The translations under genes and the position numbers were made by a program. Of a DNA stretch of 64,000 nt, positions 8,903 through 62,103 are shown in pieces. Each line of letters opens with the position of its first letter. Positions within the stretch are counted from its first letter, which is position 1. The notes beneath the pieces are model-generated. The model was not told where the DNA came from and made no database searches. It worked only from the letters and a program-made list of their open reading frames with translations. The DNA is taken from the IMG/VR virus record IMGVR_UViG_3300046103_003349; one strand, written 5' to 3'. Source of the stretch: an uncultured virus (IMG/VR IMGVR_UViG_3300046103_003349). Its lineage: Duplodnaviria; Heunggongvirae; Uroviricota; Caudoviricetes.

Positions 8903-9847
8903 CTATTTAGAAAAGTATGCTCCAAAAAATATACCTCCTATTAATGCTAATAAAGTTAATTCTCCACTATTATTATCTTCTCTTCCTTTTTTAAATTTTA
9001 TTGCATTTGACTCTCCTTCTAAACGAGTTTCAATTTTTTCATCACATTTATCTTTAGTGATGGTTTCTTTTCTTAAAGCACCTTTTTCTTTCTTTAGTTT
9101 AGCAATTGCTTTGTCTTTATCTCTTCGTAGTTTTACATATCTATCTCTGTCAATTTTTCCTTTTACAGAACCTCCTCTTGCAAAACTTCCATCTTTTTTT
9201 AGAACTACAAAATCTTTTTCTTTGTAACCCTCATTTTTAAGTTGTGTAATAATCTGCTCTATACTATCAAAAGAATTTTCATCTTCTTTATTTTGTTGAT
9301 AAATATGAACTTTATCTCCTTTTATGTCATAGGTATAGTATTTTCTTTGAGTTGTTTTACCCCCTTTAGCTATACTTTGATTGGTTGCAGTATTTAAAGT
9401 ATTGAAATATTTTTTTGATAATGGTTTTACAAACTCACCTTTAGCAAACATTTTATCTCCTTTATCCATAGTACCTACACTTGAATATGCTCTACGACCA
9501 AGAGTTTTGTTACCTGCCTTACTTTCATCTCTCCTGTCTTTTAAAGATTGACTATATCCACTCTCTCTTCCTAATCTACTTCCTAAATCTTCATTTAACT
9601 TATCGTTAAAACCTTGAGTTTCAGTTTCTCCTCCTTTAGCCATTTTTTTCTTTTTAGCAATTTTTTGCATATTTAAAGCAAATTGACCTCTTTTACGAGT
9701 TGTTTCAGAGTATTCACTTGGATTATTGGTTACTTCCATAGCAAAATCTTTTACTGACATTCCTTTCTTTTTTGCTTGTTTAGTAAAAGAGCCTTTTGTT
9801 CCTTTTTTTTCCATCTCTTTATCTACATTTTGAATCCAATCACTCAT
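8903..9847 (-). CDS. Basic multi-module protein with AKGG linkers and C-terminal TM
   Basis: MAKGG, FAKGE, IAKGG, FARGG separate short basic modules; LTLLALIGGIFFGAYF tail. Confidence 0.75.
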   Translation of the reverse strand: MSDWIQNVDKEMEKKGTKGSFTKQAKKKGMSVKDFAMEVTNNPSEYSETTRKRGQFALNMQKIAKKKKMAKGGETETQGFNDKLNEDLGSRLGRESGYSQSLKDRRDESKAGNKTLGRRAYSSVGTMDKGDKMFAKGEFVKPLSKKYFNTLNTATNQSIAKGGKTTQRKYYTYDIKGDKVHIYQQNKEDENSFDSIEQIITQLKNEGYKEKDFVVLKKDGSFARGGSVKGKIDRDRYVKLRRDKDKAIAKLKKEKGALRKETITKDKCDEKIETRLEGESNAIKFKKGREDNNSGELTLLALIGGIFFGAYFSK

Positions 9848-9849
9848 AA

Positions 9850-9948
9850 TTATTCTTTATTAAATATATTATTATACATATACCATAATCCTACTCCTAC
9901 TATTGACCAAAATACTATTCTTGGTTTTTTTTCTTTTTTATCTGACAT
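9850..9948 (-). CDS. Small TM peptide (32 aa; not in track)
   Basis: MSDKKEKKPRIVFWSIVGVGLWYMYNNIFNKE*; TAATG coupling. Confidence 0.55.
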   Translation of the reverse strand: MSDKKEKKPRIVFWSIVGVGLWYMYNNIFNKE

Positions 9949-10415
9949 TATTTCTCAGGATTAAAAGTCGCTTCAGGCAATTCAGGTCTTGGTGGTGCAG
10001 GTGCAGGTGCAGGAGTTGGTTCAGGCATTGATTGTGGAGTAGGTGTATAATCTACTTCTCCACCGTGGTCAAAATCCCTTCCATCTTCTTTTTCAAAGAA
10101 TAATTTATATCCTACATAAACTATACCTAATAAGATTAAAGCATCAAATATCTGTTTTTTATTTCTCTGAAAAAAACCTTGATTATTTGATAAATTTTTC
10201 TTTTTATATTCCTTGATACTACTTTTTTGCATCTCTTCTTCCCAATCTGATTTTCCGTTATCGCTAACTTCCATTGTTCCATCAACAAATTCATTATCTT
10301 CTTTTGCAGGTTCAGTAGCAGATTTAGTGAGTTTTTTATCTATATTACCCCACATCTCTTTTTCTTGCCTATCATCTACAAATCCATCAAAAGCAAATCC
10401 CGTATCTATACCCAT
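9948..10415 (-). CDS. Single-TM protein with Pro-rich C-terminus
   Basis: Acidic N-terminus (FAFDG), central TM, FDHGG, PAPAPAPP. Confidence 0.7.
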   Translation of the reverse strand: MGIDTGFAFDGFVDDRQEKEMWGNIDKKLTKSATEPAKEDNEFVDGTMEVSDNGKSDWEEEMQKSSIKEYKKKNLSNNQGFFQRNKKQIFDALILLGIVYVGYKLFFEKEDGRDFDHGGEVDYTPTPQSMPEPTPAPAPAPPRPELPEATFNPEK

Positions 10416-25760: not shown

Positions 25761-26591
25761 TTATCTACTTGCTCTCAAGTTTGGTGAATTATATTGAGTG
25801 CAAAATTTATTTCTTTCAAAATTCGTTATAAACTGATTTAAAACTTCAAATCTTTCTTTATTTTGAGTCGTAGGAGTATCTTTAAATGTTGTTAAAAAAC
25901 TCTGATAAGCCTCAATTCTTGGATAACCAAGAGCCAAATAAATTAATAGTCCGTTCAAATCTGCTTCAGTTTCATCTTCCATATTTTCATTTAAGTAAAA
26001 ATGAGAAAATTCGTGTAATAAAATTGCCATTCTCATTGGTACAGTAAATCTTTTAAAGTGTACTTTACTCACTTGTATAATTCCTTTGGACTGACTAATT
26101 CTTGCAGGTGTTTGAATTACCATTCCTCTTTTACTTCTAATATCATCAAAGTAATCAATCCTAAAATTACCCTCATCAGATATATATGTGCTTCCATTTG
26201 GGAATTTACCTGCACTTAATATTCCTGCGTTGTCAGAGAATTGCTGCGCAAAATTTGCAAAATCTCTAATCTTTGGATTACTCCAATCAACACAATCCAT
26301 TTTTCTTTCTAAAGGTCTTGCATCTACTTTAAGAACTTTAAAAGTAGGGTCATCACCTTTCTTTAAATTTCCATTTTCTGTATTATAAACCGATATTAAT
26401 GCTTCATAGGGTGAAATTGGCATCCTAACAAAAAATCTTTGAGTACCATTTATAGTTGAATGTCTATTAGTATAATCCGTATTTGGTTTATTTATGTCTT
26501 TAACAACAACTTGTATTTTTTGAGGACTATTTGTAATTACCTCAATCATTATAGTTAATGCTTTTTGTTTTGTTTTAAATAATATATTCAT
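25761..26591 (-). CDS. Zinc metallopeptidase (zincin, HExxH), candidate virion maturation protease
   Basis: AILLHEFSHF followed by ETEADLNG (third ligand Glu); lies inside the structural gene block. Confidence 0.78.
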   Translation of the reverse strand: MNILFKTKQKALTIMIEVITNSPQKIQVVVKDINKPNTDYTNRHSTINGTQRFFVRMPISPYEALISVYNTENGNLKKGDDPTFKVLKVDARPLERKMDCVDWSNPKIRDFANFAQQFSDNAGILSAGKFPNGSTYISDEGNFRIDYFDDIRSKRGMVIQTPARISQSKGIIQVSKVHFKRFTVPMRMAILLHEFSHFYLNENMEDETEADLNGLLIYLALGYPRIEAYQSFLTTFKDTPTTQNKERFEVLNQFITNFERNKFCTQYNSPNLRASR

Positions 26592-31610: not shown

Positions 31611-32429
31611 TTATTGTAAAAAATATTGTTGTCTAATCCTACCCCTTACTTCTTGTATAGCATCAGACCTATCTATAGTTGCCCCATCAGTTAAACTTTT
31701 TTTATTAATGGCAGGTTTAACTACTGAATTAAAGTTTTTAGATAAATACTCATCTATTGCATTATTAATAATAGATTCAGTTAATTTTCCTTTAATTTTT
31801 TCTTCATCTAAATCTACATACATAAAATATCTTGGATTATCATTAAAGTATTGAGTGTTAACTATATTTTCTGCTATACTAAATAATTCATACTTATCAG
31901 GAAATTTATTGCGATGCCTTTCTATACTGTCTGAATTTTTATGAAATCTTAGCCAATTAGCATTTTGCCAAACTTTGGTTGTTATCCTACCAATACTTTG
32001 AAAATGAATAATAATATCTAAATCCGTATGTCTATTAGAGCAAATTGCCCCAACTATATCTGTTGGTAAATGGTCGCCTACATATTTATTTATATCTTCA
32101 ATTAATAACATACCACCCCTAAAAAAATGTAAAATATCCCAAAGTTGACTAGCTATTTCTTTAAGTGTTAGTCGTATGCCTGTTTCTTCATTAAAAGGTC
32201 TAACTCTTCTTATTTCGGCAGTTGGCATAACAGAAAATTTAACTAAATCTTTCATTGAAATAGCCTTATAATCAACGAACTCATCATTAACATCTAATAT
32301 CAAAACTCTACGAGGCTCTACACCTTTTTCAGGATTACCATATACATATGACTCAATAAGAATCTTGGTTTGATAGGTTTTACCAATTCCTTTCTTACCT
32401 ACTGCCATACCTAATTTTGGTTCTCTCAT
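31611..32429 (-). CDS. Genome-packaging ATPase, A32/FtsK-HerA superfamily
   Basis: Walker A GKKGIGKT, ILDVNDEF, Walker B MLLIED, Arg finger and Gln sensor NRHTDLDIIIHFQS. Confidence 0.8.
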   Translation of the reverse strand: MREPKLGMAVGKKGIGKTYQTKILIESYVYGNPEKGVEPRRVLILDVNDEFVDYKAISMKDLVKFSVMPTAEIRRVRPFNEETGIRLTLKEIASQLWDILHFFRGGMLLIEDINKYVGDHLPTDIVGAICSNRHTDLDIIIHFQSIGRITTKVWQNANWLRFHKNSDSIERHRNKFPDKYELFSIAENIVNTQYFNDNPRYFMYVDLDEEKIKGKLTESIINNAIDEYLSKNFNSVVKPAINKKSLTDGATIDRSDAIQEVRGRIRQQYFLQ

Positions 32430-37441: not shown

Positions 37442-38350
37442 TTATTTTTGAGGTCCGAAAGGCATATTAGTAGGTGCTTCAGGTAAACCTCCAAACACTT
37501 CATTTTCATTTACTGTTTTTGGTGGAACTTGTGATTCTCTTTGACTTCTATTCATACCCCCTTGCTGATTGGGATGATTCATATAATTTTTGATAGGACT
37601 TTGACTAATTCCTTCAGATATATTATTTGCATTAAAATATTTTTTCTTAAAATTCTCATCATTTATTATACCTTGGGCTAATTGTAATCCGAAAATTTCA
37701 TCCGAAGGAAAATGAACTCCTAAAATACATCTTGATTTAGCACATTTATCAGAGAATTTAGTCAATACATCTTGTTGGTCAGGATAACGAAAACTCAAAA
37801 CATCAGCAAAAACTTTACTTTGAACCGTATGTCCTGAAGGATAAGATGGAGATTGACCTGAAACTGTAGGCATTGGATTTAAAGGATATGAAAGTATATT
37901 AGCTAATTGATATGGTCTTATTCTATTGTAATAATACTTTAACTTCATTATAATAGGATTTATATCTTTATATAATCCCTTAACAAAACCTTCAGCATTA
38001 GAAACTCCACAATTTTGTGCCATTTCTACTAACATAGATGATAAATCATCATCAAATTTTATACTTAATTCTACAACTTTATCGTGTTGTAGCTTTTTCA
38101 TTTCTTCTCTTATTTTTTCTAATTCTTTTTTTGCATATTCTCCATCGTTATTTGGATAAGGCTTTTGCATATAATGATTAGCTATATAATCATAATCACC
38201 TTCTTCTCTAATTAGAATATCTTGAGCAGCATTTGGATTCCCATAAGTTAATTCATTAACAGGAATTAAACCATATTTTGTTTTAGGTGATTTAGAATTT
38301 ATAGACATATATGAGTTTTTAGTATTATTTCTTTTTCTATTTCTAGCCAT
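37442..38350 (-). CDS. PAP2-superfamily (acid/lipid) phosphatase
   Basis: KYYYNRIRP, PSYPSGH, SRCILGVHFPSD: all three PAP2 motifs. Confidence 0.88.
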   Translation of the reverse strand: MARNRKRNNTKNSYMSINSKSPKTKYGLIPVNELTYGNPNAAQDILIREEGDYDYIANHYMQKPYPNNDGEYAKKELEKIREEMKKLQHDKVVELSIKFDDDLSSMLVEMAQNCGVSNAEGFVKGLYKDINPIIMKLKYYYNRIRPYQLANILSYPLNPMPTVSGQSPSYPSGHTVQSKVFADVLSFRYPDQQDVLTKFSDKCAKSRCILGVHFPSDEIFGLQLAQGIINDENFKKKYFNANNISEGISQSPIKNYMNHPNQQGGMNRSQRESQVPPKTVNENEVFGGLPEAPTNMPFGPQK

Positions 38351-39558: not shown

Positions 39559-41172
39559 TTACACCGATTTTACTAATATATTATTGATTATTTTTTGTAT
39601 AGAATCATACCTAATTAAATTCATATTTTTTTCATCTTGGCTCATACTATTGTCTAATATTTTTTTGCTTATTTTTAACTGATTATATAACCAATCTAAT
39701 TTAAAGTTATTAGTTTTTGTTTTGCCCCCTTTTGAATAATATGGGTTAGTCCTCTCTTGCCTTAACCAATCCTCTCCATCTGTTTTATCATCTTTATAAC
39801 CCGTTGGTGGCTCTACAACTTCTGCCTCTACATTCATTAAGTTGGTATATCCTCTTTCATTAACCCATTTTTTTGCAAGTTCTTTTGCCTCTTGCTCATT
39901 TAAAGCATAACCCCCAATACTTTGCTCGGCTTCATCCTCAAATGTAAAACTAATCTCATAGTATTGTTTAGTGTCGTGTTTATCTACCTCCCCTCCTTTC
40001 TTAAAAGAAAATTCATCTTTCATCTTAATCACTTCTTTTGCTGATATTTTAAAAACTACATTTTCTTTTAATTCAGCATAACCATCAAGCTCAGTATATC
40101 CACCTCTTTTCTTTTTACTTGTATCATATTTAACAATCGCATATTTACTTTTTGGATATTCTTTAGAACTATATATTCCATCTTCACTTTTAAGATAATC
40201 AAATAGGTTGTTCATAGCTTGAGTAAATTTTAGAGAAACATTTGGCACTCCTCTATTTGTTGTATAAGAACCTAATTCTAACCATCCTATATAATTATTT
40301 TCTATTCTATAATAAATCTCCCTTTCAATCTCCCCACCTTTAGCCATCATTTTTTTTATTGCTGACACCTTTTCTGTCATTCCACCCTTTTCCATTTTAA
40401 GTTCTTTGGCATCTACTTTGGCTGCTTTACCTCCCATTACTGCACTATATACTCTTGCTTGAGCCCATTGCTCTTTAGACTTAACATTAGGTCTAACACT
40501 TGAGGGATTTGTTTTATATGCCCCTATACCTTTATTATATATCTTTTGTATTCCTTTTTTTGAAACTCCTGTATCTTCTGAAATTTCTGATAATGAATTT
40601 GACTCTTCTAAATCATTTCCATACTTTTTGTTATATTTCTGTTTCCAAGTTTTTGCTTCTTTGGTCTTGCCACCTTTTGCATAATCTTCAGGGTTTATCT
40701 CTATCAACCTTTCTACATATTTTTTTGCTTCTGAAAGAGTTTCAAACTCTCCCTTTAAATCCTCTACTTGTCCATACTCATTCTTTCCATAAACCAACCA
40801 ATATCCTCTCCTTTCAAAGTTATCTCCCCAATCTCTTTCATAAAACTTACCTTCTCTATGAATTAACCAATTTCCATTTTCAGAAATATATCCTCCCACA
40901 TTTTCATAGGCACTTTCACTTTCCATAGTAGAACTCCACCCATCATCTCCTATGTTTTTTTTCCATACTATCCCACCTTTAGCATATTTAAAACCTTTAT
41001 CAAAATCTGCTTCCTCTAACTCTTCCTCTAATACTTCAGGATTCTTACAATGAAACTTTATATGGTTAGCATAGTCATCTAATGTAACTATTCCATTATT
41101 ATTTAAATCAAAATGCTCGTGCAATTCATCTTTAGTTATGTTGTTGGGATTTTTAGGAAATTTTTTATACAT
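39559..41172 (-). CDS. Polyprotein with KGG linkers (EF-hand-like N-module; DUF5824-like module)
   Basis: YAKGG x2, MEKGG, MAKGG, FKKGG, YSKGG; FDLNNNGIVTLDDY; IYNKGIGAYKT..RP..QWAQARV. Confidence 0.78.
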   Translation of the reverse strand: MYKKFPKNPNNITKDELHEHFDLNNNGIVTLDDYANHIKFHCKNPEVLEEELEEADFDKGFKYAKGGIVWKKNIGDDGWSSTMESESAYENVGGYISENGNWLIHREGKFYERDWGDNFERRGYWLVYGKNEYGQVEDLKGEFETLSEAKKYVERLIEINPEDYAKGGKTKEAKTWKQKYNKKYGNDLEESNSLSEISEDTGVSKKGIQKIYNKGIGAYKTNPSSVRPNVKSKEQWAQARVYSAVMGGKAAKVDAKELKMEKGGMTEKVSAIKKMMAKGGEIEREIYYRIENNYIGWLELGSYTTNRGVPNVSLKFTQAMNNLFDYLKSEDGIYSSKEYPKSKYAIVKYDTSKKKRGGYTELDGYAELKENVVFKISAKEVIKMKDEFSFKKGGEVDKHDTKQYYEISFTFEDEAEQSIGGYALNEQEAKELAKKWVNERGYTNLMNVEAEVVEPPTGYKDDKTDGEDWLRQERTNPYYSKGGKTKTNNFKLDWLYNQLKISKKILDNSMSQDEKNMNLIRYDSIQKIINNILVKSV

Positions 41173-41176
41173 TATT

Positions 41177-44100
41177 TTATTTCTTTTTCAATTTATCTAA
41201 TTCTTTTTTCATTTCTTTTTTAATATAATCATCTTTTTCTTCAGAAATCATTTGCTCTATCATTTTAATGTCCTCATCTTTTTCTGAACTAACCTCACCT
41301 CCTTTTTTAAACTCTTCTTTTTTCATTTCTATTTTGTCTTTAATTACAATAGGAGCATCTTCAAATTTTATTTTTTTGCCAAAATGACTAATGTCTGAAG
41401 GAAATTCATTTCTATTTCCTACAAACATATCCATACTCGTATTAGGCATATTTTGAGTATTCATATCATATACATCCCTATCAATAATAACAGTATAATT
41501 ACCATCATCATCATATTGATATATTTCAATATAACTCATATCTAATTTACCTCCGTGCTCAAGCAGTTCTGCCCCACTATTATCAGTAGTTATTATTACA
41601 TTACCAACTTCTTTTCCTGATGTTTCTCTAATTTTACTTTTAAGTTCTTCTAATTCTTCTTTACTCAATTCAAATTTATTAACATTTCTATCAGAAACAT
41701 CTAATACAAAACTCCAACTTGTATTTCCTGATTTACTTAAAATACCCCTTCCTGTTGATGCATCTATTTCTCCCCACTTCTTATCACTCTGTATTCTAAT
41801 AATATTAGTTTTTCCTGTTATAGGATATACGATAAAGTCTTGTGGCTTTCTCATACCTTTTACCTTTAAATCAAAAGATAATGTTCCCATATAGTTTTTA
41901 TGATAGTTTGTTATAGGTGATGCAGTTTCTCCACCCTCTGCGTAGGTAGAGCCACTATCTGTGTTATGGATTTTTGTAATAACCTTTGCATCAATATTTT
42001 TAGATATAAAATTTTGAACTGCTACTTCGTTTTTTTTCATATAAATTCTACCTTTCATAGTATTATTAGATGTGTGTTTGATTTCTCCAACAACAATATA
42101 AATATCTATATCCCGATTGTACTTTTTAAAATTATCTGATAATAACGAACCACCACCTATTGCAGTATAGCCTTGATTAGAATACATTTCAAGTATTTCA
42201 TCTTTGGATTGAGTTGTTTTTCTCGTATCAATAAACACTCCATTAGGCAAGTTTATCTCTCCACCCTCTGCGTAGGTATAACCGCCTTTGGAATATTCAT
42301 TTTTATTTTCAGATTTACTAACTGAAAAGAAATACCCCCAATCATTTCCATTATCACTTGGCTTTGAAATAAGTATAGGTTCACTATCATACCACCCTGT
42401 AAATTTATTATTAGGATATTCTATTATATTCTCTAATTCCTTTTTAACTTTTTCCCAATTAACACCATCGACAAACGACCCTCTTTTTTCAATCATTTCA
42501 TTCATAGTGTCATAGGTTTCGGTAAATCCGCTACTTGTAACACTTGGGGTTGAATGTTTATGAAATTTATATCTATATGTCGCTTTTTGTATTGGTCTTA
42601 TGTTTAAGTGTACCCATTCATCAACTTCTTCAACTTCTACTACAACATTATTAAATTTTGATTCCACGATTCTCTTTAAACGGATTGCTTCATCTATATC
42701 TTTGTCAGAGGCTAATTCCTCTCCCACATTTCCGTTTTCTCTTGTACTATACATAATGAGGTCTTTTTCATCTTCATCATATAAAGTCATATAAGTATCG
42801 CTACTCTCAATTAGTTTTACTATGTCAGAATGATTTTTTATCTCTCCACCCTCTGCGTAGGTAGAACCGCCTTTTGCATAACCATCATCAGAAACAACAT
42901 CTATATTTCCTGACCTTGTTCCAAATACAATCGTGTCCGTTGGTCCTGTTCTAATTTTAAGAGGTAAAGGAATAGGGTCATCAGAATAACCAAGTTTTTC
43001 AATTTTACCTTTGTATCTCTTTCCATTATTTATTCTAACTATAACATTGTCGCCAACCTTAAAACCCCCACCTGTTTTGCCACCTTTTGCATATCTATCT
43101 CTGATTTTTTGTCTTTTAGGTGAGTTCAAATCTCTTTGTGGGAGATAAGTTGGGTGAATATCTATCCACGATTGCAAATAACCTTTTGCTCCGTTATAAT
43201 CTGCTTTTGATATTTTTTTATCTTTTAATAATTTATTAAGTTCTTCAAATGTAAAACTGTCTGCTAATTCTCTAGTTTCTATGCCTGAACTCATAAGATT
43301 ACCACCTTTTGCATAAGTTTTATCTACACTTTCAATTAATTCATCATAAGTGATTAAACCTTGGTTATATTTTTTAATTCTATCATCTAAAGACAAGTAA
43401 TTTACATCTGCACTTGCTTTTGAAAATTTTGGATTTTTATCATCTATATCACTATTAAGGTCATTTCCATCAGACATAAAATAAACCCTACCATTTTCAA
43501 TGTTAATTTTTATTAATGGTAAAGACTTGCTAATTCTACCTGTTTCGGTTTCATTACGAAATAGCATTTCATTAGGTTTTAAAGCTATATGGGAATAAAA
43601 CTTTCTATCATAATCATCTAACAAAAACAAGTAGTAATCTCCTGTATTCCGTTTATTATAAGTATGAGAAAAAGAACCTACTGCTTTTTGATTATTAATG
43701 TTTTTATAATTCTCCCAAATCTTAACACCTCCATTACCCATTCTTCTATTTGCGTAATTGTCTGTATCTGTATATGTAACCTCTCCACCTTTAGCCATCA
43801 TATAGTTTTCATTTCTATCTCTATCTAATTTAGATATTTCATCTTGTGTTGGCTTTCTAAAGTCCGTAATAAAACCTCTTCCACCTTTATTTTCTATTGA
43901 TTTAAGGAAAGTATTAGCAACCTCTTTAGTGTCAAAACTCTTATTCTTTAGAGGAATACCTTTAGGAATGTCAGATACACTTGAATAATAATTAACTATA
44001 TAATAAGTTTTACCCTCTAAATAACCACCTTTTGCAAACTTACCTCCCTCATCTATGTAGTACAAATCTCCTTCATACTCAAATCCTATTGCTTCTTGAC

Positions 44101-45304
44101 CCCATCTTTTTGCCCATTGTTTAACTTTAGAAACTACCTTGCTTTCATTCTTTTTCCAATCTTTATTATTAGCGAATACTGATACCTTTACTATATCTTC
44201 TTCTATTATCTCTCCTGATGTTGATTTGTAACCTCCATCGGTATCAGTTTCAGTATATCCTCCAAACTCATTAGCAACATATTTTTCTACTTCATCTACT
44301 CTTTTATCTAACTCTTTTTTAGATATTTTATTTCCTACATCAGATGTTGAAGGAACATATATTACAAAATTCTTATCAAACTTAAATTCTTTAGATAAAG
44401 CACCACCTTTAGAATAAATTGCCTTTTCTTTAAAAAGTTTTTCCATTTCCTTGTCAAAATCTTTTCTTTCTTCTTCATTAAATGCCTCATCTGATACTTC
44501 CGACCAATCTTCATTACTATCCATAGGTCTATATAATATAATATCTTCATCTTTTTTATATTCAGAGCCATATTTTTTAGATTTCATTATAGGTCTTAAA
44601 TCAAAAGCATCATTTCCTAATCCATAGTCAAAAGTCCAACCTTTAGATTCTAATTTATTTAGTAATTTTTTGGTTTGATTATAATCATCTAATTCTCCCT
44701 CCTGCATAATATCATCTGATATATCTTTAGGCAATAAATCATATTCAGAGAAGTAATCTATATTAGGGTCGTATTTAAAAGTTTCTCCTCCTTTTGCATA
44801 TTCTAATGTAGGACCTTTATCTAAATCTGCTATTTTTTCAATTGGGTTATACTCTTTTGTTTTTTCATTCTGAACACCAACTTGATATTTTAATTGAGAT
44901 TGGTCTAATTTATTTAACTCTTCTTTTAAATCTCCATAACTTGATATTTGTGCCGTTTCGCCACCTTCTGCGAAAAATAAATTATCAGACATTTTAGGTA
45001 ATACAAAATCCTCTACCCTAGACTCATCATCTAAATCTGTATCAGGCAATTCTGATTCTTGATGGTAGTCAGGATTACCTGCATCACTATCATATGCATA
45101 TCTTTCTATTTTTTCAGCTTCTTCTTCTTCATTGGTCTGCATAGGCAAGTTTGCATTTATATACTCTATTTTTTTTTGATTTTCATCAAATTCTTCTTTC
45201 ATAGCAGTATCATCAAGTTCATCTTTCAGAAATTCCTGTTCTTCCATTAATTCAATTAATGCTGATTTTAATTCTTCTTGTGATTTTCCTCTGAATTCTT
45301 CCAT
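41177..45304 (-). CDS. Large polyvalent polyprotein with ~15 xx(K/E)GG linkers
   Basis: FAEGG, YAKGG x4, YSKGG x2, FAKGG, MAKGG, MGNGG, YAEGG x3, LEHGG, FKKGG separate mostly 50-190-aa modules, including a DUF3574-like one (FGGYT...GY...WGQEAI). Confidence 0.8.
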   Translation of the reverse strand: MEEFRGKSQEELKSALIELMEEQEFLKDELDDTAMKEEFDENQKKIEYINANLPMQTNEEEEAEKIERYAYDSDAGNPDYHQESELPDTDLDDESRVEDFVLPKMSDNLFFAEGGETAQISSYGDLKEELNKLDQSQLKYQVGVQNEKTKEYNPIEKIADLDKGPTLEYAKGGETFKYDPNIDYFSEYDLLPKDISDDIMQEGELDDYNQTKKLLNKLESKGWTFDYGLGNDAFDLRPIMKSKKYGSEYKKDEDIILYRPMDSNEDWSEVSDEAFNEEERKDFDKEMEKLFKEKAIYSKGGALSKEFKFDKNFVIYVPSTSDVGNKISKKELDKRVDEVEKYVANEFGGYTETDTDGGYKSTSGEIIEEDIVKVSVFANNKDWKKNESKVVSKVKQWAKRWGQEAIGFEYEGDLYYIDEGGKFAKGGYLEGKTYYIVNYYSSVSDIPKGIPLKNKSFDTKEVANTFLKSIENKGGRGFITDFRKPTQDEISKLDRDRNENYMMAKGGEVTYTDTDNYANRRMGNGGVKIWENYKNINNQKAVGSFSHTYNKRNTGDYYLFLLDDYDRKFYSHIALKPNEMLFRNETETGRISKSLPLIKINIENGRVYFMSDGNDLNSDIDDKNPKFSKASADVNYLSLDDRIKKYNQGLITYDELIESVDKTYAKGGNLMSSGIETRELADSFTFEELNKLLKDKKISKADYNGAKGYLQSWIDIHPTYLPQRDLNSPKRQKIRDRYAKGGKTGGGFKVGDNVIVRINNGKRYKGKIEKLGYSDDPIPLPLKIRTGPTDTIVFGTRSGNIDVVSDDGYAKGGSTYAEGGEIKNHSDIVKLIESSDTYMTLYDEDEKDLIMYSTRENGNVGEELASDKDIDEAIRLKRIVESKFNNVVVEVEEVDEWVHLNIRPIQKATYRYKFHKHSTPSVTSSGFTETYDTMNEMIEKRGSFVDGVNWEKVKKELENIIEYPNNKFTGWYDSEPILISKPSDNGNDWGYFFSVSKSENKNEYSKGGYTYAEGGEINLPNGVFIDTRKTTQSKDEILEMYSNQGYTAIGGGSLLSDNFKKYNRDIDIYIVVGEIKHTSNNTMKGRIYMKKNEVAVQNFISKNIDAKVITKIHNTDSGSTYAEGGETASPITNYHKNYMGTLSFDLKVKGMRKPQDFIVYPITGKTNIIRIQSDKKWGEIDASTGRGILSKSGNTSWSFVLDVSDRNVNKFELSKEELEELKSKIRETSGKEVGNVIITTDNSGAELLEHGGKLDMSYIEIYQYDDDGNYTVIIDRDVYDMNTQNMPNTSMDMFVGNRNEFPSDISHFGKKIKFEDAPIVIKDKIEMKKEEFKKGGEVSSEKDEDIKMIEQMISEEKDDYIKKEMKKELDKLKKK

Positions 45305-47480: not shown

Positions 47481-50400
47481 TTATTTTACTCTTATTTTTA
47501 ATAATGACATAGAGTTGTTAAATTTATCAATTAATGTTTCAAGATTATCACCTCTTCTTTTTGATTTAAGTAGTTGGCTTTCTTCTTCTTTAATTCTATT
47601 ATCAATCTTCCACTTTTTCTCGCTACCTAATTCATTACGACCTTCAACAACTTTGTTTTTTGCTTTTGTTATAAGAATATCAATATCGCTAAATGAATAT
47701 GTTTCTCCTTTTTCTTCATTTTTTATTATGTTTTTAACTAAATAACAATAATTAGACATAACTCTTTGATATTCTGTACCTGTTGCAAATTTATTTACTT
47801 CATAAACTATCATTTCGTAACCAAAGACTCTACCTTTTAATTCAAACAATTTGAAATGGTCTAAAATAATTTTTACCATTTGAAAACCTAATTGAGATTC
47901 TGAATTAACAGACCTCAATTCTCTTTTTCTATCTTCAAGTGAATAAGCAGTTAAATCTAAAATGTTATCTATCATACCTCTATCTTTTTTTAGCATTTTC
48001 CTCACACTATCTCCTACTGTATTTACCAATACCATATCCGATTCAGTATTTAATATAATATCAGGATTTACAAATTCAATAAGACCATTTTCAGCTTGTT
48101 GTTCAACTATTTCAATTGCTTGGTCAATAGAAGTAAGGTTTGGCTTATTATTTTCTTTCCAATCCCTTCCTCTTCCTCTGCTTTCTTTTTTGAAATCATA
48201 GATTATTTGAATATCTAATTTATCTTTTTCTCTTTCTGCAATTTTTTTCTTTTCGTCATATTTAACTAAAGAATATAGACTATTCATCAAAACAACATAA
48301 CTATTAAATTCATCTTTTACCTCTCCATACTTAGACTTTATAGATTCTAATTTGCTTTTTTTATCAGAAAAATTAGCTACTTTGCTATTTAACTCATCTA
48401 CTTTATCTTGCCAAGCTAAATCAGTTAATTGGTTTACATCTGTAATTATGTTTCTTATCCTTTCTTTAGCATCTATTGTGTACTGAGTTTTATTCAATTC
48501 ATAAACACCTGCTTCAAGCATTTTTTTAATTTCCCCAATCTTTGTTTGTAGTTTAGAATATACAAATGCATCTATACTATCAATTCCAAGGACATAAACA
48601 ATTCTGACAAATTCCCACATATTTTTTTGTCGCCATATCCTGCCTTCTAATTGCATTGCATTTGATGGAGAAAAATCACTATCTAAAATATAAAGTGTAT
48701 GTGCCCTTTTATTTAAATCTATACCTTCTTTAATAGCCGAAGAACCAATTAATATTTTTATTCTACCATCATTAAACTTATCTCTGATATCTTCTCTCCT
48801 TCCTATTTTTTTATCTTTTTTTGTTTCTTCATCAAGTTCTGTTTTACCAAATTTATCTGTAGCTTTGACTTGACCCGACATCGCACCTGTAATTACTCCT
48901 ATATTTTCTTTTGTTATAGTGCCAACTTTTTCTGTTATGTTATCATAATAAGAAATATTTCTATCTATTATATATGTTTTTATTAATTCGTATAAATTAT
49001 AGTAATGACCTCCATACTTAAAAGCCTTTCCTCTGTTAATATATAGTATTTGACCTCCAACTTCTCTATTATTAATCCCCCCCTCTTTTGAGTCATATTT
49101 AATAGTATTAATAGCACACTCTATTGCATATTTAATCTTTGGGCTATTCTCTACAAAATTCTTAGCAGATTTAGAAATATCATTTGGATATAAAGGATAG
49201 TCTTTTAATAGGTCATTAGGTATCTCTCCTTCGGCATCACATTTTAATAAATAAGGAGAAATTACACACATTTGCCCAAATCCTTGACCAACAATAGCAC
49301 GAGCCATTTTGACTTCAGATTTGCTATTGGCAGTTAAATCCATATCTTTATAATTACTATTATATAAAAGTTCATCCTCTTCGCTATCTAAAATTTCTTC
49401 AGGTGTAAGAATTTCTTTATCAACCAAACTTTGTTTTAAAGCAATTCTTTTGTCTTGGGGATAGGTTAATCGCAAATCAACTAATAATGCTCTTGCCTCA
49501 TATAAAAGTTCTTCCCATTCTAAACTTCCTTCTTCTTCTGTTTTAAAATTTTCATCTTTATTTTTTTTCTTTAATAATCCTGCTTTTGTCAATAAAGAAT
49601 CTACCACCTGAATGGATTCCTTTACCTCATCATTTAAGAAGATTATTTCTTGAGTTTCTTCATCTATTTTAATGGCATCTCCATAGTTTGGACAATATTG
49701 GAAAGGAATATCAATTTTACCCTCTACATATAATGCAATTTTCTTTAATATTTCAGTTTGAATATCACTTAAAGGCACATAGCTTGATACATCTTGTAAT
49801 TGTTTTGCCCATTGTACTGAAGATGTATTTGCTCCTGCCTGATATTCTCCTCCTGTTCCATCTTGAGGTATGTAATATTTTAATGGTCTATCAGCTTCTA
49901 TTATTTTATCCGAAACCTTAAAGTTTGCCATAGCCTTTATAAAGTTAGACATTGCACCTGAGTTATAATAACTTTGTATTTCAGGAAATAATCCAAAGGT
50001 TTGTTTGTGAGTAATCTTAAACCTCCACTCCTCATTAACAAAAGTTACAAAGAAATCCCAAACTGAAGAGATATTGCTTTCCTTCATTTTATCTAAATTG
50101 GTCATACCAAATACTGAAAACATCTGAAAAATATTATCTGTAAAAGGAGTGGCAGACATTAATATAGTATTGTTTACTGCTTTATTTTCTTCTTTAGCCT
50201 GTATTTCAAATATTAAAGCAATTAAATTAGCAGGTTTAGTGCTTAAATTTTTTGCTGATTTAGAGTAATATTTTAGCCTGTAGGAACTATCGGGCTTACT
50301 TCCTGTTTTGGGCTTATTAAAGTTTTCTACATTATGATAAGGTGTTCCTTCTTCAACATTAAGACCTTGTTCTGCACCTGTTAGTTTAAGTCCATCAGGC

Positions 50401-53400
50401 AATTTGTCTAATATTGCAGATGCGTTCATTGTAGGCAATATATGAAATTGTTTATCAATACTTGAACCTCTAATTGAAGGTACATTAGAAAGACTTTGTT
50501 CTCTTGGCTGAGTAATTAAATTATTAAAATTATGTATTTCATCTACACATATACCATCTAAATTTAATTTTTTAAATGATAAAGGAAGATTTGATATTTC
50601 ATCATAAAATCTATTTGTACTTGTATTTACATAACTTTCATCATCTACATTTTGAATATACATTTTTGCCTTAACATTTGCTTCATCATCTGCTCTAAAC
50701 CTACTTATTGCTTCGTGATTACATAATATTATCTTATTAGGCTCTAATACTCTTTTATCGTATTCCCCTAATACATCAATAAGCATACCCTCAATTTGTT
50801 TTAACAAATTTGTTACTTTTCCTGAGTTCTTATTATCTATTGGGTTGAAAAATTTTAAGGCAAGAGTGCTTTCTTTAATTTTTATATCCTTTATTCCTTG
50901 TTGAGAAAGAACACCTTCCCAAGGCAAGTTAAGTTGTGTTTCTCTTGCTTTTATCCTGTCGTATTGGGACTTATTTATTACTCCATCTAATAAAGCATCA
51001 TCTAAATTAGATACCCATCCTTTTTGAGGATAATCATTCTTTCCTAATTTTGGCTCATCCTTTTTAGGCTTAGATTTTTTCCACCAATTTTGTATTGATT
51101 GGGGATATTTAACGATTTTAGATTTGTTTTCTCCTGTGAAATCTGATATTGTATATCTATATCCTGATTGAAATTTTAGGTATTCGCTATTTACTTCATC
51201 ATATATTTTTTGTGCTGATTTATCTATTTTATTTAATATTCCCATTACGGCTTCTTCCGTAGCATCTGCATCTCCATAAAATATTTGAGGAATTTTCATT
51301 GACAAAGCAACCATAAAATTATCATACCAATCATTAAAGTCAGATTCTAATTGTGCTGATGTAAACCTACTTTCGTTTGTATTGCCTCTTTTATCTTCAG
51401 GTAAGAAAGTAGGGGCAAATGCAGGAAGGTTTTTTAATTGGTCTTTTGCCATTTCAACTACCCCCTTATCATCTTCTGTTCTTTTTTTGCCTTTTACCTT
51501 TCCTTTGCCCTTCCATTTCTGTATTATTAATAATTCTTCATCAGTAAAACTTTTGAGTTTATTATCTTTATTAAGTAATAAATTTGAAGATGCATTTCCA
51601 AACTTTATTATATCTATTGCATCAGTTTTATTATCTTTTTTATTTTTTTCAATAACCTGCCAATTAGTTAATAAGCCTAATGTTTTTGTAGTATCTCTTC
51701 CTACTATTTCATCTGCAAATTTTTCATACACTTGATTAGGGGTAAAAACTATAGTTCTTGAACTATCTCCTGTTAAAACCATATGAGAAATCATTGCTAT
51801 TGATGTTGTGGTTTTTCCAAATCCTACCTCGTGAGCCAATAGACCTGAATTTTTATTTGCTATGGCAAATTTCATACCTTCAACCTGTGCATCTCTTAGA
51901 CTGAATAAGAAAGGGCTAGGAAGAGAGCCAAACCACCTTGAGTGTTCACAAAATATTGGGAATTTAGAATAGTTAGCAATAGCCATATTATTATATGTCT
52001 TATTCCATAATTCTTCAATATTTTTTCTGTACTCAGGTGTTAACTGAATTTTACAAAAAGTAGTAAATAAATTGTTTCCCTCTAAAATTATTTGACTTTC
52101 TAATTTTTTATATTTATCATAAATTACACTAAATATTCTTTTCCCTTCCTCCTCTGTAATAGGAGTGAACATTTGTTTTTTTGTAATAGTTTTTTCAGGG
52201 TCATTTGGGTCTTTAATTTTAACTTCTACTGATTTTTTTGGCTTATTATCAACCAATCCTATTTTGATTAAATTTTGCCTACTTTCTTCAGTCAAATTAC
52301 TAAATTGATATTTTTCATTTTTCTTTTTATATATATTTCCTAATGTAAAAGTTTTTTGTTGAGAGCCTAATGTTTCTATAAACTTTAAAGGGCAAGGTGT
52401 ATTCTGCCCTTCATCAGCTATTTTTTCAAATTTAGGCAGTATATGTTTATTTATAAATTTAGCTGATGACATCGGAAATATATATCCATCTACTATATAA
52501 AACTCATTTTGTTTTAAATTAGGACTACTAATAAAATCTACTCCTTGTCCAAATACAATCCACTCATAAAATTTCTTCAAGTGATTATTGGATATTTTTA
52601 AATTGTTTTTCTTTATAAAATCATTGTATTGTGATTTTTTAGAAGAACCACCTAATTCAATATTTTTATATTTTGTATCTATTTCATTTTCTATTGTAGA
52701 AATACGAACTTTTCCATCTCTAAAAATTCCTCTCTCTTTTGCTACTCTACCTACAAATCCTTCTGAATCAGCATAAAATATAGGATTATGAATATTTAAC
52801 ATTAAATTTAAAGAGGGGTTTTTATCTCCAAATGTCAATCTTTCAGGCTTAGATTTTGTTAGAATATAGTTTTGATTATCTACTATTATATTACCCCTCC
52901 TATCTCCATAATACTCAATTATATTATCTTCAAGTTCTTTATTTAATATTTCTATTTTCTTATACACATCTCCCGAAGAATACTCATAACTGTAAGTATA
53001 TTTTTTTTCCGTTACTTGACCTGTTCCTGTAGCTATTGATAATTTTTCTATACATATATATCCTTTATCAAGTAGTATTGGAAATAACTTATCTGAAAAA
53101 ATAAAATAATCAACACCTAAAATTCTTTGAGATAACTTTCTAAAATAAGATGAATTATCTTTTTTACTTCCTCCTTTTGTTACGAAATAAGCCAATACCT
53201 CTTCTATGCTCATCTCTTGATTGTTCATCCAAAATGCTTCTCTAACATCATATATATAGAAGTAATCAGGATTAGACCATTGTTCTTTGCCATCCTTTCC
53301 TTTTATAACCTTTCCTTCACTTGAATCTAATGACCAATTAGGATTAATTTTATTTTTCCATTTTAATACTCCATTTACCTTTACTTGTTCAGCATATGTG

Positions 53401-54941
53401 TAAATAAATGATGCTATGTTGTCAATAAATAATTTATAGAATAAATCGCTTTCTTTTATATCTATTAATTTTGATTGTCTAATTAATGCATCTTGCAATG
53501 CCTCTGACTCATTTATAACATCTTCTGATACAATTATTGGTTTTACATCTTGCTCTTCAAATATCTTTGTTTTTTGAACAATAGATAATGATGGCTTATA
53601 TAATTCTGCATATAATATATATTCGGATTTAGACAACAAACCTGCACTAACACCTTTACAAAACCCATATTGTTCTTTATTTGAATTCACAAAATATGCT
53701 TCATCATTTTTAGGATTAAAATATATGTCAATAGTTTCATCTTTATCATCCATATAAGTTGCACAGGTTAATGCAAAATACAAGTCATTACTACGAAGAT
53801 TTATAAATATTTCATTTATTTTATCAAAATATAATTTAATTGATATAGCCTTAAAACCATTAACACTTTGCTTATATGTTGGCTCTTCTGACCAATATGT
53901 ATCATAAAAATTTCTTGATAAAATATTAAAAGGCTCTATACTATTAAGTATGTCTTTACCTTTGATTCCTGATACTTTTACAAAGTCTTTGTTATTTTCT
54001 AAATCCTTAACAAAATTAGCCTTTTTAGATATTTCTTCTAAATCTTCTGCACTACATCTTTTTTCGGAAGAAACAGGAGATAAAGAAAATTTAGTAGCAT
54101 TTTTGTTTATTGTATCTTTGCTTGTATATCCTCCTGTATAAAATGAAGTATCAACTTCAGTAGAAATTGAAAGAGGTGTGCATATGTAATCTTCAGATAT
54201 TATTACCTCTGTTCTATCATTAACAATATATCCTTCTGCTTTATTTCTTTTGTATTTTATCTTAACACTATTTAAATCTTTATTTATAACTGCATCAAAA
54301 AATTTAGCTGTTTTTTCAATAGTATATTCTTCTAAATTAAGGTTTTTTGGGCATAATTGTTTCAAGATAATTTTAAAACTATCCTCATCAATAGAGCGAT
54401 ATTCTTTTAAGAAATTTATATCACTTGTTGCTATTGAATTAACTATTCCATACGGCAAAGAAACATAATTTATATTATTATAAATTTTATCATACATAGT
54501 AATGCTTTGCGACTGAAAAGAAATATTCATCACCTTATAATTAATAAAATTAACTAATGCATCTACTATATTATTATATACTGCAACTTCTTTACTATAT
54601 AATTTTTCAATAAATTTTTTTACCTCAAGGTCTTTACTTCCCTCAAATGTTAATATTTTATCTTTAAAGTAATTATTTTTATTTTTACCCTTAGTGTCGG
54701 CAGTTAATTTTAACTCTTTCCAAAAAAAAGCATTTACTCCAAAGCTACCATCTACAAGTGATTCTCTACTATACTTTCCTGAACTTATAAAGGGAATACT
54801 ATTTCCATTTATAAAATTAGGGTTTTTAGCAATATATTTAGCTATGATATACATACCTTCATTTTTCAATAAAGTATCGCTATCAATTGTTTCGTTAACC
54901 TGAGTTATCTGTTTTCCTATGTAATCTAATATTTTTGCCAT
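47481..54941 (-). CDS. Giant SNF2/SF2 helicase protein, DarB-like
   Basis: Q motif LRDAQ, Walker A AHEVGFGKT, DEIH, motif III MSATP, motif V KEGIDLN, motif VI QLEGRIWRQ. Confidence 0.85.
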   Translation of the reverse strand: MAKILDYIGKQITQVNETIDSDTLLKNEGMYIIAKYIAKNPNFINGNSIPFISSGKYSRESLVDGSFGVNAFFWKELKLTADTKGKNKNNYFKDKILTFEGSKDLEVKKFIEKLYSKEVAVYNNIVDALVNFINYKVMNISFQSQSITMYDKIYNNINYVSLPYGIVNSIATSDINFLKEYRSIDEDSFKIILKQLCPKNLNLEEYTIEKTAKFFDAVINKDLNSVKIKYKRNKAEGYIVNDRTEVIISEDYICTPLSISTEVDTSFYTGGYTSKDTINKNATKFSLSPVSSEKRCSAEDLEEISKKANFVKDLENNKDFVKVSGIKGKDILNSIEPFNILSRNFYDTYWSEEPTYKQSVNGFKAISIKLYFDKINEIFINLRSNDLYFALTCATYMDDKDETIDIYFNPKNDEAYFVNSNKEQYGFCKGVSAGLLSKSEYILYAELYKPSLSIVQKTKIFEEQDVKPIIVSEDVINESEALQDALIRQSKLIDIKESDLFYKLFIDNIASFIYTYAEQVKVNGVLKWKNKINPNWSLDSSEGKVIKGKDGKEQWSNPDYFYIYDVREAFWMNNQEMSIEEVLAYFVTKGGSKKDNSSYFRKLSQRILGVDYFIFSDKLFPILLDKGYICIEKLSIATGTGQVTEKKYTYSYEYSSGDVYKKIEILNKELEDNIIEYYGDRRGNIIVDNQNYILTKSKPERLTFGDKNPSLNLMLNIHNPIFYADSEGFVGRVAKERGIFRDGKVRISTIENEIDTKYKNIELGGSSKKSQYNDFIKKNNLKISNNHLKKFYEWIVFGQGVDFISSPNLKQNEFYIVDGYIFPMSSAKFINKHILPKFEKIADEGQNTPCPLKFIETLGSQQKTFTLGNIYKKKNEKYQFSNLTEESRQNLIKIGLVDNKPKKSVEVKIKDPNDPEKTITKKQMFTPITEEEGKRIFSVIYDKYKKLESQIILEGNNLFTTFCKIQLTPEYRKNIEELWNKTYNNMAIANYSKFPIFCEHSRWFGSLPSPFLFSLRDAQVEGMKFAIANKNSGLLAHEVGFGKTTTSIAMISHMVLTGDSSRTIVFTPNQVYEKFADEIVGRDTTKTLGLLTNWQVIEKNKKDNKTDAIDIIKFGNASSNLLLNKDNKLKSFTDEELLIIQKWKGKGKVKGKKRTEDDKGVVEMAKDQLKNLPAFAPTFLPEDKRGNTNESRFTSAQLESDFNDWYDNFMVALSMKIPQIFYGDADATEEAVMGILNKIDKSAQKIYDEVNSEYLKFQSGYRYTISDFTGENKSKIVKYPQSIQNWWKKSKPKKDEPKLGKNDYPQKGWVSNLDDALLDGVINKSQYDRIKARETQLNLPWEGVLSQQGIKDIKIKESTLALKFFNPIDNKNSGKVTNLLKQIEGMLIDVLGEYDKRVLEPNKIILCNHEAISRFRADDEANVKAKMYIQNVDDESYVNTSTNRFYDEISNLPLSFKKLNLDGICVDEIHNFNNLITQPREQSLSNVPSIRGSSIDKQFHILPTMNASAILDKLPDGLKLTGAEQGLNVEEGTPYHNVENFNKPKTGSKPDSSYRLKYYSKSAKNLSTKPANLIALIFEIQAKEENKAVNNTILMSATPFTDNIFQMFSVFGMTNLDKMKESNISSVWDFFVTFVNEEWRFKITHKQTFGLFPEIQSYYNSGAMSNFIKAMANFKVSDKIIEADRPLKYYIPQDGTGGEYQAGANTSSVQWAKQLQDVSSYVPLSDIQTEILKKIALYVEGKIDIPFQYCPNYGDAIKIDEETQEIIFLNDEVKESIQVVDSLLTKAGLLKKKNKDENFKTEEEGSLEWEELLYEARALLVDLRLTYPQDKRIALKQSLVDKEILTPEEILDSEEDELLYNSNYKDMDLTANSKSEVKMARAIVGQGFGQMCVISPYLLKCDAEGEIPNDLLKDYPLYPNDISKSAKNFVENSPKIKYAIECAINTIKYDSKEGGINNREVGGQILYINRGKAFKYGGHYYNLYELIKTYIIDRNISYYDNITEKVGTITKENIGVITGAMSGQVKATDKFGKTELDEETKKDKKIGRREDIRDKFNDGRIKILIGSSAIKEGIDLNKRAHTLYILDSDFSPSNAMQLEGRIWRQKNMWEFVRIVYVLGIDSIDAFVYSKLQTKIGEIKKMLEAGVYELNKTQYTIDAKERIRNIITDVNQLTDLAWQDKVDELNSKVANFSDKKSKLESIKSKYGEVKDEFNSYVVLMNSLYSLVKYDEKKKIAEREKDKLDIQIIYDFKKESRGRGRDWKENNKPNLTSIDQAIEIVEQQAENGLIEFVNPDIILNTESDMVLVNTVGDSVRKMLKKDRGMIDNILDLTAYSLEDRKRELRSVNSESQLGFQMVKIILDHFKLFELKGRVFGYEMIVYEVNKFATGTEYQRVMSNYCYLVKNIIKNEEKGETYSFSDIDILITKAKNKVVEGRNELGSEKKWKIDNRIKEEESQLLKSKRRGDNLETLIDKFNNSMSLLKIRVK

Positions 54942-57516: not shown

Positions 57517-57725
57517 TTATTTTGAGGACAAGATTGTCCACTTAAAAGAGTTTTTGCTTTTAATATACACCCACAAGTTAATTGATTACCATTACTATCA
57601 TATTCAGGCTTTAATAATGTCCCACAAGTTAACCCCACTCCGTAGGTTTGCCTTACATAAGGGCATCTACTACATATGTTCAATCTGTCCTGTGCATTTA
57701 ATCTTCTTGGTGTGTTATTCCACAT
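57510..57725 (-). CDS. Small Cys-rich protein (RLxICxxC...CGC...CP..KW)
   Basis: Six Cys in a pattern common in phages. Confidence 0.7.
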   Translation of the reverse strand: MWNNTPRRLNAQDRLNICSRCPYVRQTYGVGLTCGTLLKPEYDSNGNQLTCGCILKAKTLLSGQSCPQNKW

Positions 57726-57726
57726 A

Positions 57727-61515: not shown

Positions 61516-62103
61516 TTATCTTATTGTTAATTTATCACAATTGTCGTTAATTTCACCTATATCAAGCATTTGACCCATACATTCATCATTTAAACACTCT
61601 ACGCTCATTACAGCCCCTTTTTTGTTTGATGCATCTATTACTGCTTGTATGTAATATTTGTATGTGTGTGAATTAGAAAATTCATCATCAATTTTTATAT
61701 TATCTATATTTAATAATTCAGTATTATAATAATTTGGCTTTAATTTTATCTGACCAATTTTTTTATTATCTCCTGCACCTGAAACATAAAAATCATATTG
61801 ATTACTATTTTTGGAATATCTGTTACAGATGGTTGGCTCGTACATAATACCACCTTTTTTAAATATTGTAATTTTCGCTCCTTTGTCAAAACTTACTCCA
61901 TTTCCATCTATTTCGTTAATTGCTGATGCAATTTCTCTTGGAGTTCCTTCAACTTTAAATTTTCTATCATCAGCCATTGATTTTTTATTAATTATGGCTT
62001 CACCTCCTTCAACCTCTATTTTTTGACCTGTTGACTTGACTGTCATTGGTATTCCTCCATCTTGATGTGATGGTCCTTTTGTAAATCCTCCTTTTGCTTT
62101 CAT
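61516..62103 (-). CDS. KGG-linked two-module protein: GPSHxxGG...EVEGGE domain + degenerate GNAT-like domain
   Basis: Start likely MKAKGG at 62103 (promoter box just upstream); FKKGG linker; LNIDNIKIDDEF. Confidence 0.65.
   Translation of the reverse strand: MKAKGGFTKGPSHQDGGIPMTVKSTGQKIEVEGGEAIINKKSMADDRKFKVEGTPREIASAINEIDGNGVSFDKGAKITIFKKGGIMYEPTICNRYSKNSNQYDFYVSGAGDNKKIGQIKLKPNYYNTELLNIDNIKIDDEFSNSHTYKYYIQAVIDASNKKGAVMSVECLNDECMGQMLDIGEINDNCDKLTIR

Follow-up and report, generated by a model that had tools for sequence, protein, structure and literature searches.

A seven-residue Gly-Gly motif marks the borders of shuffled modules in the cassette proteins of an uncultured marine virus

Cassette proteins and their motif

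The DNA analysed here is a 64,000-nucleotide stretch (the window) from an uncultured marine virus (IMG/VR record IMGVR_UViG_3300046103_003349) in which all long genes lie on one strand. At positions 41177-45304 the minus strand encodes a protein of 1375 amino acids (aa), the plus frame of the same stretch being full of stops, and this protein is punctuated by 14 copies of a seven-residue motif, [YFML]-x-x-G-G-x-[IVTL], 12 of which fit the strict form [FYM][AS][KE]GG. Shuffled versions of the protein (n=5000) contain on average 0.02 strict matches (maximum 2) and 0.20 loose ones (maximum 4), and the remaining 16,729 aa of the window hold no strict and two loose matches. Arrays of the motif are present in three more open reading frames (ORFs) of the window (Table 1). 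An earlier note on this DNA had described the joints as (F/Y/M)AKGG linkers; these do occur in the arrays, but the motif is longer than was written and takes in a hydrophobic residue two positions past Gly-Gly. Across 1056 sites in homologues the consensus reads Y57/F27/M10, A75/E13, K76/E16, G, G, x, I26/T24/V23/L20, and the second position after Gly-Gly is I, V, T or L in about 93% of them. The note's counts were close for the ORFs at 39559-41172 (six, as stated), 3-2285 (eight plus one cut by the contig end, for nine) and 41177-45304 (14, for about 15), while 8903-9847 has two clear copies and the degenerate IAKGG and FAKGE, for about four, and 61516-62103 has only degenerate copies, for two.

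The motif as module border and swap point

The motif marks the borders of modules that move independently of one another. A search with the whole 1375-aa protein found 151 proteins, each covering at most 28% of the query, with identity up to 99%; the motif is in all of the best 120 of these (median 9 copies) and in 83 of 84 shorter homologues. One metagenome scaffold whose ORFs are also 1375 and 537 aa long (L042), together with 14 DNA runs containing the stretch, is possibly the window's own source and does not count as independent. In a test that did not use the motif for cutting (201 homologues, three self-like entries removed), 333 of 536 ungapped alignment ends fell within 6 aa of a motif, against 12.5% expected, as did 56 of 109 distinct positions. 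When 299 motif-bearing proteins, a set that includes one false member (the collagen protein L020), were cut at the motif, 2350 segments of at least 25 aa resulted, with a median module size of 79 aa, 730 families, about 100 of which have at least five members, and 264 different orders. The linkers thus separate unrelated small modules, as the earlier note had proposed; their role as swap points it had missed.

Where two proteins have a module in common but differ in its neighbour, mean identity per family climbs from about 0.1 to 0.7-0.9 at the upstream motif (145 families) and drops back at the next one, from about 0.85 to 0.1 (154 families); this comparison is partly circular because the families were defined by cutting at motifs. 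Within the motif, the first hydrophobic residue goes with the upstream module (0.89 versus 0.49) and the two residues past Gly-Gly go with the downstream module (0.73 and 0.82 versus 0.22 and 0.32), so that a cassette spans from after one Gly-Gly to the next and the exchange falls within the A-K-G-G codons. The S-adenosylmethionine (SAM)-lyase-like module described below has, in 64 copies, 43 different upstream and 31 different downstream neighbours. The motif is also retained at one joint without shuffling (35 of 35 cases). Joints seen in sequencing reads had less than about 30 nucleotides on a side and were left out of the analysis.

Selection acts here on the peptide and not on a fixed DNA site. 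Among 609 distinct sites all four glycine codons are used and the commonest 14-mer accounts for 50, and we therefore reject a strict DNA recombination site, given that synonymous positions vary. Integrons and shufflons, by contrast, combine a conserved DNA site with an adjacent recombinase, and no integrase match was found in the window or in the related genomes G001 and G004. Codon usage within the motif shows a mild excess (GCA 64% versus 44%, AAA 91% versus 76%, first GGT 54% versus 36%), and repeats of 18-49 nucleotides (nt) surround some copies. The codon pattern is consistent with recombination at short stretches of common DNA and later selection that keeps the peptide intact. All three relatives scanned have RecT, with a homologue in a fourth, and we infer that it could drive the swaps.

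Domains inside the modules

Recognizable domains fit between the motifs. Of 50 Pfam and PHROG hits (one per region, with overlapping sister families and a collagen hit left out) only 3 cross a motif where 28 would be expected, and by family the figures are 2 of 27 versus 14 (P=1e-7); domains spanning the linkers, which the earlier note had named as contrary to its proposal, are thus not the pattern seen. Splitting at the linkers, as that note had advised, shows several modules to be equivalent to entire free-standing phage families or to domains known for anti-defence roles: the small families phrog_9437, 6246, 1915, 11458, 3543 and 15551 are mostly covered between two motifs, and the named modules of relatives comprise ArdA, RelA/SpoT, ART-PolyVal, RadC, LPD11, GNAT and a WGR-ligase. 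Most of the 60 proteins scanned contain no named module, PADLOC gave no useful match, and in the window's own arrays only a DUF5824 and the SAM-lyase-like module were identified. A GPSH module in the protein at 61516-62103 recurs in relatives, inside their cassette proteins. Tape-measure proteins of Bacteroidota phages share it too, with a match to one of 123 family profiles at E 2.8e-7, and among phages its matches are confined to those of that phylum (63 records, best E 2e-4). The idea that this module is a protease found no support, and the available passages on the T5 tape-measure protein give no cut-site sequence.

A predicted SAM lyase

One module of the 1375-aa protein, aa 302-422, is likely a SAM lyase, judging from its modelled fold and conserved residues. 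The structure model, which covers aa 297-670 (three modules), predicts for it a PII-like alpha-beta sandwich matching the SAM lyase Svi3-3 over its length. Foldseek with the module model ranked the phage SAM lyase 6ZM9 first (E 4.5e-3, probability 1.00) and placed the T3 SAM lyase at ranks 10-11, and the VIA comparison with Svi3-3 gave a Z of 9.0 and a root-mean-square deviation of 4.4 over 119 of 129 residues. According to the accessible part of PMC7877911, Svi3-3 uses S50, G56, Y58, E69, Q104 and E105 and is a trimer with its sites between subunits. When the two are paired by spacing rather than by residue-level superposition, G357, E369, Q403 and E404 of the module are invariant in 27 of 27 aligned copies, position 359 is Y or F, and T351 is the counterpart of S50; the substrate-binding pattern is matched in 110 of 110 full-length distinct copies. 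Such an enzyme is predicted to blunt SAM-dependent restriction, and its trimeric assembly would be easier if the module were released from the chain.

A profile of the module found 1642 relatives at 50% clustering. The module lies between motifs in nearly all of the best 150 of these matches, and among the 117 new ones listed all carry the motif, 99 of them at least three times; near-stand-alone forms of 138-173 aa keep it with a short leader in front. The module is the commonest among the homologues fetched, a frequency inflated because it was the query chosen for the loci. In the three-module model confidence is low at all four motifs and the predicted template modelling score is 0.39; this carries little weight, since most rows of the alignment stop at motifs and the model of the middle module is poor. 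The known Svi3-3 and T3 enzymes share fold, length and substrate-binding residues with the module but, in what is available of PMC7877911, are stand-alone genes, whereas here the domain is embedded between motifs.

Other features of the cassette proteins

The acidic helical first module and the helical-hairpin last module of the 1375-aa protein are fixed caps in close relatives; no helical cap common to this protein and the ORF at 45309-47474 was detected. In the protein at 3-2285 the first motif lies 6 aa past the start. The contig end (window 1-14) falls inside a motif, within FEKGG codons; in run X7 a long contig stops at a tandem motif near 42847, and assemblies thus tend to break at joints. 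A short tail, F-x-G-x-L-S-F-L-N-W/Y, recurs after the final motif at array C-termini (L088:2091, L117, L090 and L092), and the tails of P0308, P0315 and P0322 consist of a motif plus one residue (YQIGGL, YEIGGL).

Distant relatives (L002:1625, L009:1879, L015:77 and L027:144) and the window (9948-10415) encode a small membrane protein with one motif ahead of a transmembrane helix, a candidate simple substrate or anchor. Membrane anchoring is not general: none of 71 complete array ORFs has a strong hydrophobic segment, and hydrophobic N-ends and C-ends were seen in 3 and 5 of 203 proteins. Two near-duplicate pairs of small genes share identical N-terminal sequences (16916-17350 with 25408-25734, and 8161-8673 with 21881-22468).

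Table 1. Coordinates of the cassette proteins, their motifs and neighbouring genes in the window
Feature	Position	Strand	Details
1375-aa cassette protein	41177..45304	-	14 motifs; 13 modules of 39-183 aa and two 2-aa spacers
Motif YSKGG preceding the SAM-lyase-like module	44402..44416	-	15 nt
Other 13 motifs of the 1375-aa ORF (lower coordinate)	44960, 44786, 44024, 43784, 43301, 43079, 42866, 42845, 42281, 42260, 41930, 41549, 41297	-	15 nt each
Predicted SAM-lyase-like anti-restriction module, aa 302-422	44039..44401	-	T351, G357, Y359, E369, Q403, E404
537-aa cassette protein	39559..41172	-	6 motifs; DUF5824 module at aa 166-253
761-aa cassette protein, open at contig end	3..2285	-	8 motifs and a ninth, FEKG(G), cut by the contig end
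314-aa cassette protein	8903..9847	-	2-4 motifs; first module phrog_20603; hydrophobic C-terminus
195-aa protein	61516..62103	-	Degenerate KAKGG and FKKGG only; first module GPSH..GG..EGGE
Small protein with hydrophobic stretch	9948..10415	-	One motif, FDHGGEV
HExxH...E..AD zincin-like gene, virion block; candidate processing protease	25761..26591	-	Conserved
Candidate major capsid protein, 241 aa	28353..29078	-	Single jelly-roll model; disordered acidic N-arm with the N-x-x-G motif twice
HerA/FtsK-like ATPase, candidate genome-packaging motor	31611..32429	-	
2486-aa SNF2/DarB-like helicase	47481..54941	-	Two genes upstream of the arrays

The virus and its related genomes

The candidate capsid protein models as an eight-stranded sandwich with weak matches, too low to prove kinship, to the jelly-roll capsids of PR772, PRD1, phiCjT23 and FLiP (Z 5.8-6.2). 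This candidate, the HerA-like ATPase and the HExxH ORF are common to the window and all four related genomes read (G001, G002, G004 and G005). All four carry the HExxH gene, a RecT homologue and motif arrays, the arrays being on the same strand as the capsid gene and the ATPase gene; RecT and a nuclease lie on the strand opposite the arrays. No match to an HK97 capsid, portal, terminase, prohead protease or tail was found in the window or in G001 and G004, and from its gene content the virus looks tailless. Its host is likely a member of the Bacteroidota, although matches of the protease gene to metagenome-assembled genomes are scattered over phyla (3 of 8 in Bacteroidota) and do not give the host. 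Neither the ORF nor the capsid candidate found a cultured relative by tblastn in 50,697 phage records, and scans of IMG/VR with the ORF or the module found none.

These genomes point to an apparently undescribed lineage of viruses, 80-100 kb in size, that combine a capsid candidate of single jelly-roll type with the HerA-like ATPase, the HExxH gene and a PAP2-like gene (G001, G002 and G004). Inverted terminal repeats are present in the 84-kb record of one relative, and relatives carry a second capsid-like paralogue. The window also encodes an Fe/Mn superoxide dismutase (3178-3849) and a PAP2/haloperoxidase-like protein (37442-38350), the latter in all related genomes read. A weak match to the STING ligand-binding domain in G004 (L137:14587-14979, minus strand; E 3e-4, below the cut-off) might be a nucleotide-signal sponge.

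Candidate proteases and a second motif

The HExxH...E..AD gene is invariant in the virion block of the related genomes and is the only shared protease candidate; its sequence profile found no chain in the PDB. Other candidates were set aside. A RadC/JAB module as Gly-Gly protease occurs in only 5 proteins and in none of the four genomes read, and an LRAT/C97-like (LRAT/PPPDE-like) cysteine enzyme was seen only in G004 (L136:15034-15483) and at L012:19736-20218. The LRAT/PPPDE-like ORF has a hydrophobic tail and adjoins a capsid paralogue. A second HExxH ORF, at 57727-59208, sits in a MoxR/vWA-type cluster and is not among the shared genes; in this region (56464-61514) vWA, HExxH and P-loop ATPase genes stand in a row, resembling a MoxR-vWA-peptidase module.

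The second motif, [YFW]-x-[NS]-[AFQ]-x-G, was counted 165 times across 41 related loci, against 32 in shuffles, and is found in 17 ORFs of the window, none of them an array. About 40 small genes at 5156-29078, many with hydrophobic ends, carry a [FYW]-x-N-[AQH]-x-G motif that is also in the capsid N-arm. The earlier note had taken the Gly-Gly motif for an address code distinct from N-x-x-G. The two do mark different sets of proteins, but they share an A-x-G core, and one enzyme could therefore read both.

Discussion

Our results establish that a short peptide motif divides the cassette proteins of this virus into modules and is the point at which these modules are exchanged. The reading that we favour, at a probability of about one half, is that the proteins are virion cargo chains, probably cut at the motif, that release small host-takeover proteins into the cell. 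In this scenario the chains would be made with the virion genes and loaded via a partner that reads the motif, they would be cut at or beside Gly-Gly, most likely by the conserved HExxH enzyme, and the released units, the predicted SAM lyase for example, would act in the infected cell. New in-frame orders would arise by recombination at 8-15 nt of shared motif DNA, plausibly via the RecT of relatives, and would be retained because the motif must stay whole. The presence of the motif at every joint, even the one that does not shuffle, favours cutting, since one tag per chain would otherwise do. Our best reading is thus of polyvalent virion cargo whose joint would be a loading tag, a likely cut site and a swap point.

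From their testable features, seen through relatives, the cassette proteins appear to work like the polyvalent proteins, for which, in the accessible portion of Iyer et al. 2017 (PMC5512222), processing by zincin peptidases is proposed and processing is shown for P1 DdrB. Both are long chains of mixed conflict domains (ART-PolyVal, RadC, ArdA, LPD11, LPD1, GNAT and RelA/SpoT in relatives), with several unrelated domains per chain in variable order, and marker domains of the family, whose set comprises ART-PolyVal, LPD, RadC, ArdA and MPTase, are found in relatives that share modules and motif. Both also lie near SNF2/DarB-like or virion genes; the arrays stand beside an SNF2/DarB-like gene, as the earlier note had said of phage polyvalent proteins, and they lie on the virion-gene strand. 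The differences are that here a seven-residue motif stands at every joint and modules are swapped at it ('linker' and 'glycine' are absent from the main text of PMC5512222), the modules are much smaller, the candidate peptidase is a separate gene of the virion block, and the virus looks tailless. The new feature is a standard joint that is also a swap point. No description of the motif or of the virus group was found in the open-licence literature searched, nor of the motif in the available portions of PMC5894146 and PMC9503650.

Other packaged or processed systems show partial likeness. The internal proteins of phage T4, which has an HK97 head, bear a capsid-targeting sequence that is removed by the prohead protease gp21, a serine protease cutting after Glu. 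The likeness lies in a short motif that both loads cargo and is cut (if this holds here), in anti-defence cargo, and in the leader and motif before near-stand-alone modules. T4 internal proteins are separate genes, however, whereas here there are Gly-Gly sites, internal repeats and a jelly-roll particle candidate; we found no match to an HK97 head or gp21-type protease in the window or in G001 and G004, and the motif has no Glu at the joint. In African swine fever virus (ASFV; pp220 and pp62), adenovirus and poxvirus, precursors with Gly sites are cut by Ulp1-like cysteine proteases into fixed structural core proteins. These systems share with ours Gly-Gly sites in long precursors, a jelly-roll virus and a HerA/FtsK-type ATPase, but their products are fixed in order, whereas here shuffled accessory modules come in 264 orders among 299 proteins. 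Because the order is not fixed and no such enzyme was found in the window or in G001 and G004, we do not regard the cassette proteins as members of the ASFV/adenovirus system, and the enzyme analogy drawn in the earlier note is not supported.

A further comparison is with crAss001 gp45 (L122:16988-19516), a proven virion cargo of a Bacteroidota phage that is treated as one chain in the accessible parts of Bayfield et al. 2023 (PMC10172136). It has about nine x-x-x-G-G sites, and both segments modelled by cryo-electron microscopy lie between such sites, an arrangement allowed by cut and uncut readings alike. In contrast to the virus studied here, crAss001 is a tailed HK97 virus, gp45 is read by the authors of that study as one uncut chain, and it has no significant pairwise match to the window proteins, including the GPSH module. 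The nearest named Atlas cluster to that module is gp45's portal-binding family (0.86), which serves as a lead only. By eye, gp45 residues 375-423 resemble the first module of the protein at 8903-9847; there is no profile match.

Several observations weigh against the favoured reading. Twelve of the 13 modules of the 1375-aa ORF are without assigned function. For the predicted SAM lyase, no Foldseek match fell below 0.001, the VIA Z is tied by an unrelated ferredoxin-fold protein aligned over 94 residues, and the sequence profile found no PDB chain. As for the enzyme, the HExxH gene has weak family matches only (best E 0.015) and may instead act on the N-x-x-G sites found in capsid proteins. 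The Ulp1/C48-like protease that the earlier note had suggested looking for gave no Pfam match, nor did adenain or I7L, in 71 ORFs of the window, itself a fragment, or in 141 ORFs of the near-complete G001 and G004, a search that a remote homologue could escape. Motifs are also kept 1-3 residues ahead of the stop codon or right where an ORF begins, positions at which a cut would separate nothing, and this weakens the case for cutting. Finally, the accessible passages of PMC8406200 have the T3 SAM lyase as the earliest protein to be expressed on infection, which fits early synthesis as well as packaging.

Some of these points would also fit a motif that serves as a tag for loading or ejection, recognized by a partner in the virion and left uncut; the chain would then be packaged and ejected whole, and the tag would double as swap joint. 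We regard this as possible but well short of probable. A tag would account for chain-end motifs that keep the hydrophobic residue at +2, for the motif in all 117 new SAM-lyase-like matches listed, near-stand-alone forms included, and for its single copy in the small membrane protein of distant relatives. It is also consistent with the portal-bound segment of gp45 (residues 425-552), which, in the same parts of PMC10172136, starts A-F-G-G-W with residues on both sides of Gly-Gly modelled together, and with the polyvalent proteins N4 vRNAP, ArdC and TraC1, which travel unprocessed (PMC5512222, same portion). One such tag would suffice per chain, yet every joint has one, including the joint that does not shuffle, and a predicted trimeric enzyme sits mid-chain. 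That the motif is a mere flexible linker and recombination joint, spread via DNA exchange and read by no protein, strikes us as improbable: crossovers inside its codons, mild codon homogenization, the repeats near some copies, RecT in relatives and a contig breaking at a motif all point that way, but all four glycine codons occur, the top 14-mer covers so few sites, and the aromatic and +2 hydrophobic classes are kept with different codons, which neither a DNA joint nor a plain linker would need.

The prospect that the chains are not packaged at all, but are synthesized in the infected cell and cut there by a protease of host or virus, so that many small takeover proteins can be expressed compactly, seems to us slimmer still. 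Similar motifs in viruses of another realm with Bacteroidota hosts could be explained by a host enzyme, ArdA acts early after entry, and two seawater metatranscriptomes contain RNA contigs, possibly transcripts, that match parts of the ORF at 99% identity. The available text of PMC8406200 likewise has SAM lyase acting early after entry. Against this, in the relatives read the arrays share a strand with the virion genes, opposite RecT and the nuclease; tape-measure proteins have one module in common with the cassette proteins; and polyvalent-type domains are predicted, in the portion of PMC5512222 cited above, to be delivered with the DNA.

Returning to packaged and cut cargo, a far broader proposal would make the Gly-Gly motif a universal cargo plug in Bacteroidota viruses, serving together as an address for loading, as the site cut by a new maturation protease of zincin type and as an in-frame recombination joint. 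An undescribed lineage of large tailless single-jelly-roll viruses would then draw on a common library of injected, interchangeable effectors, more than 700 in number, with the same plug in crassvirus cargo and in tape-measure proteins of another realm. We consider this generalization doubtful as a whole. The motif itself resolves hundreds of giant proteins that lack annotation into clean units, each open to cloning and to screening for anti-defence activity, and since the few nameable units are anti-restriction or host-takeover enzymes, the roughly 700 unnamed families make a candidate anti-defence list. The proposal that polyvalent proteins are processed, open since 2017, gains an explicit site and a candidate enzyme, and the cassette proteins show how an arsenal of effectors can be reshuffled in frame without a site-specific recombinase.

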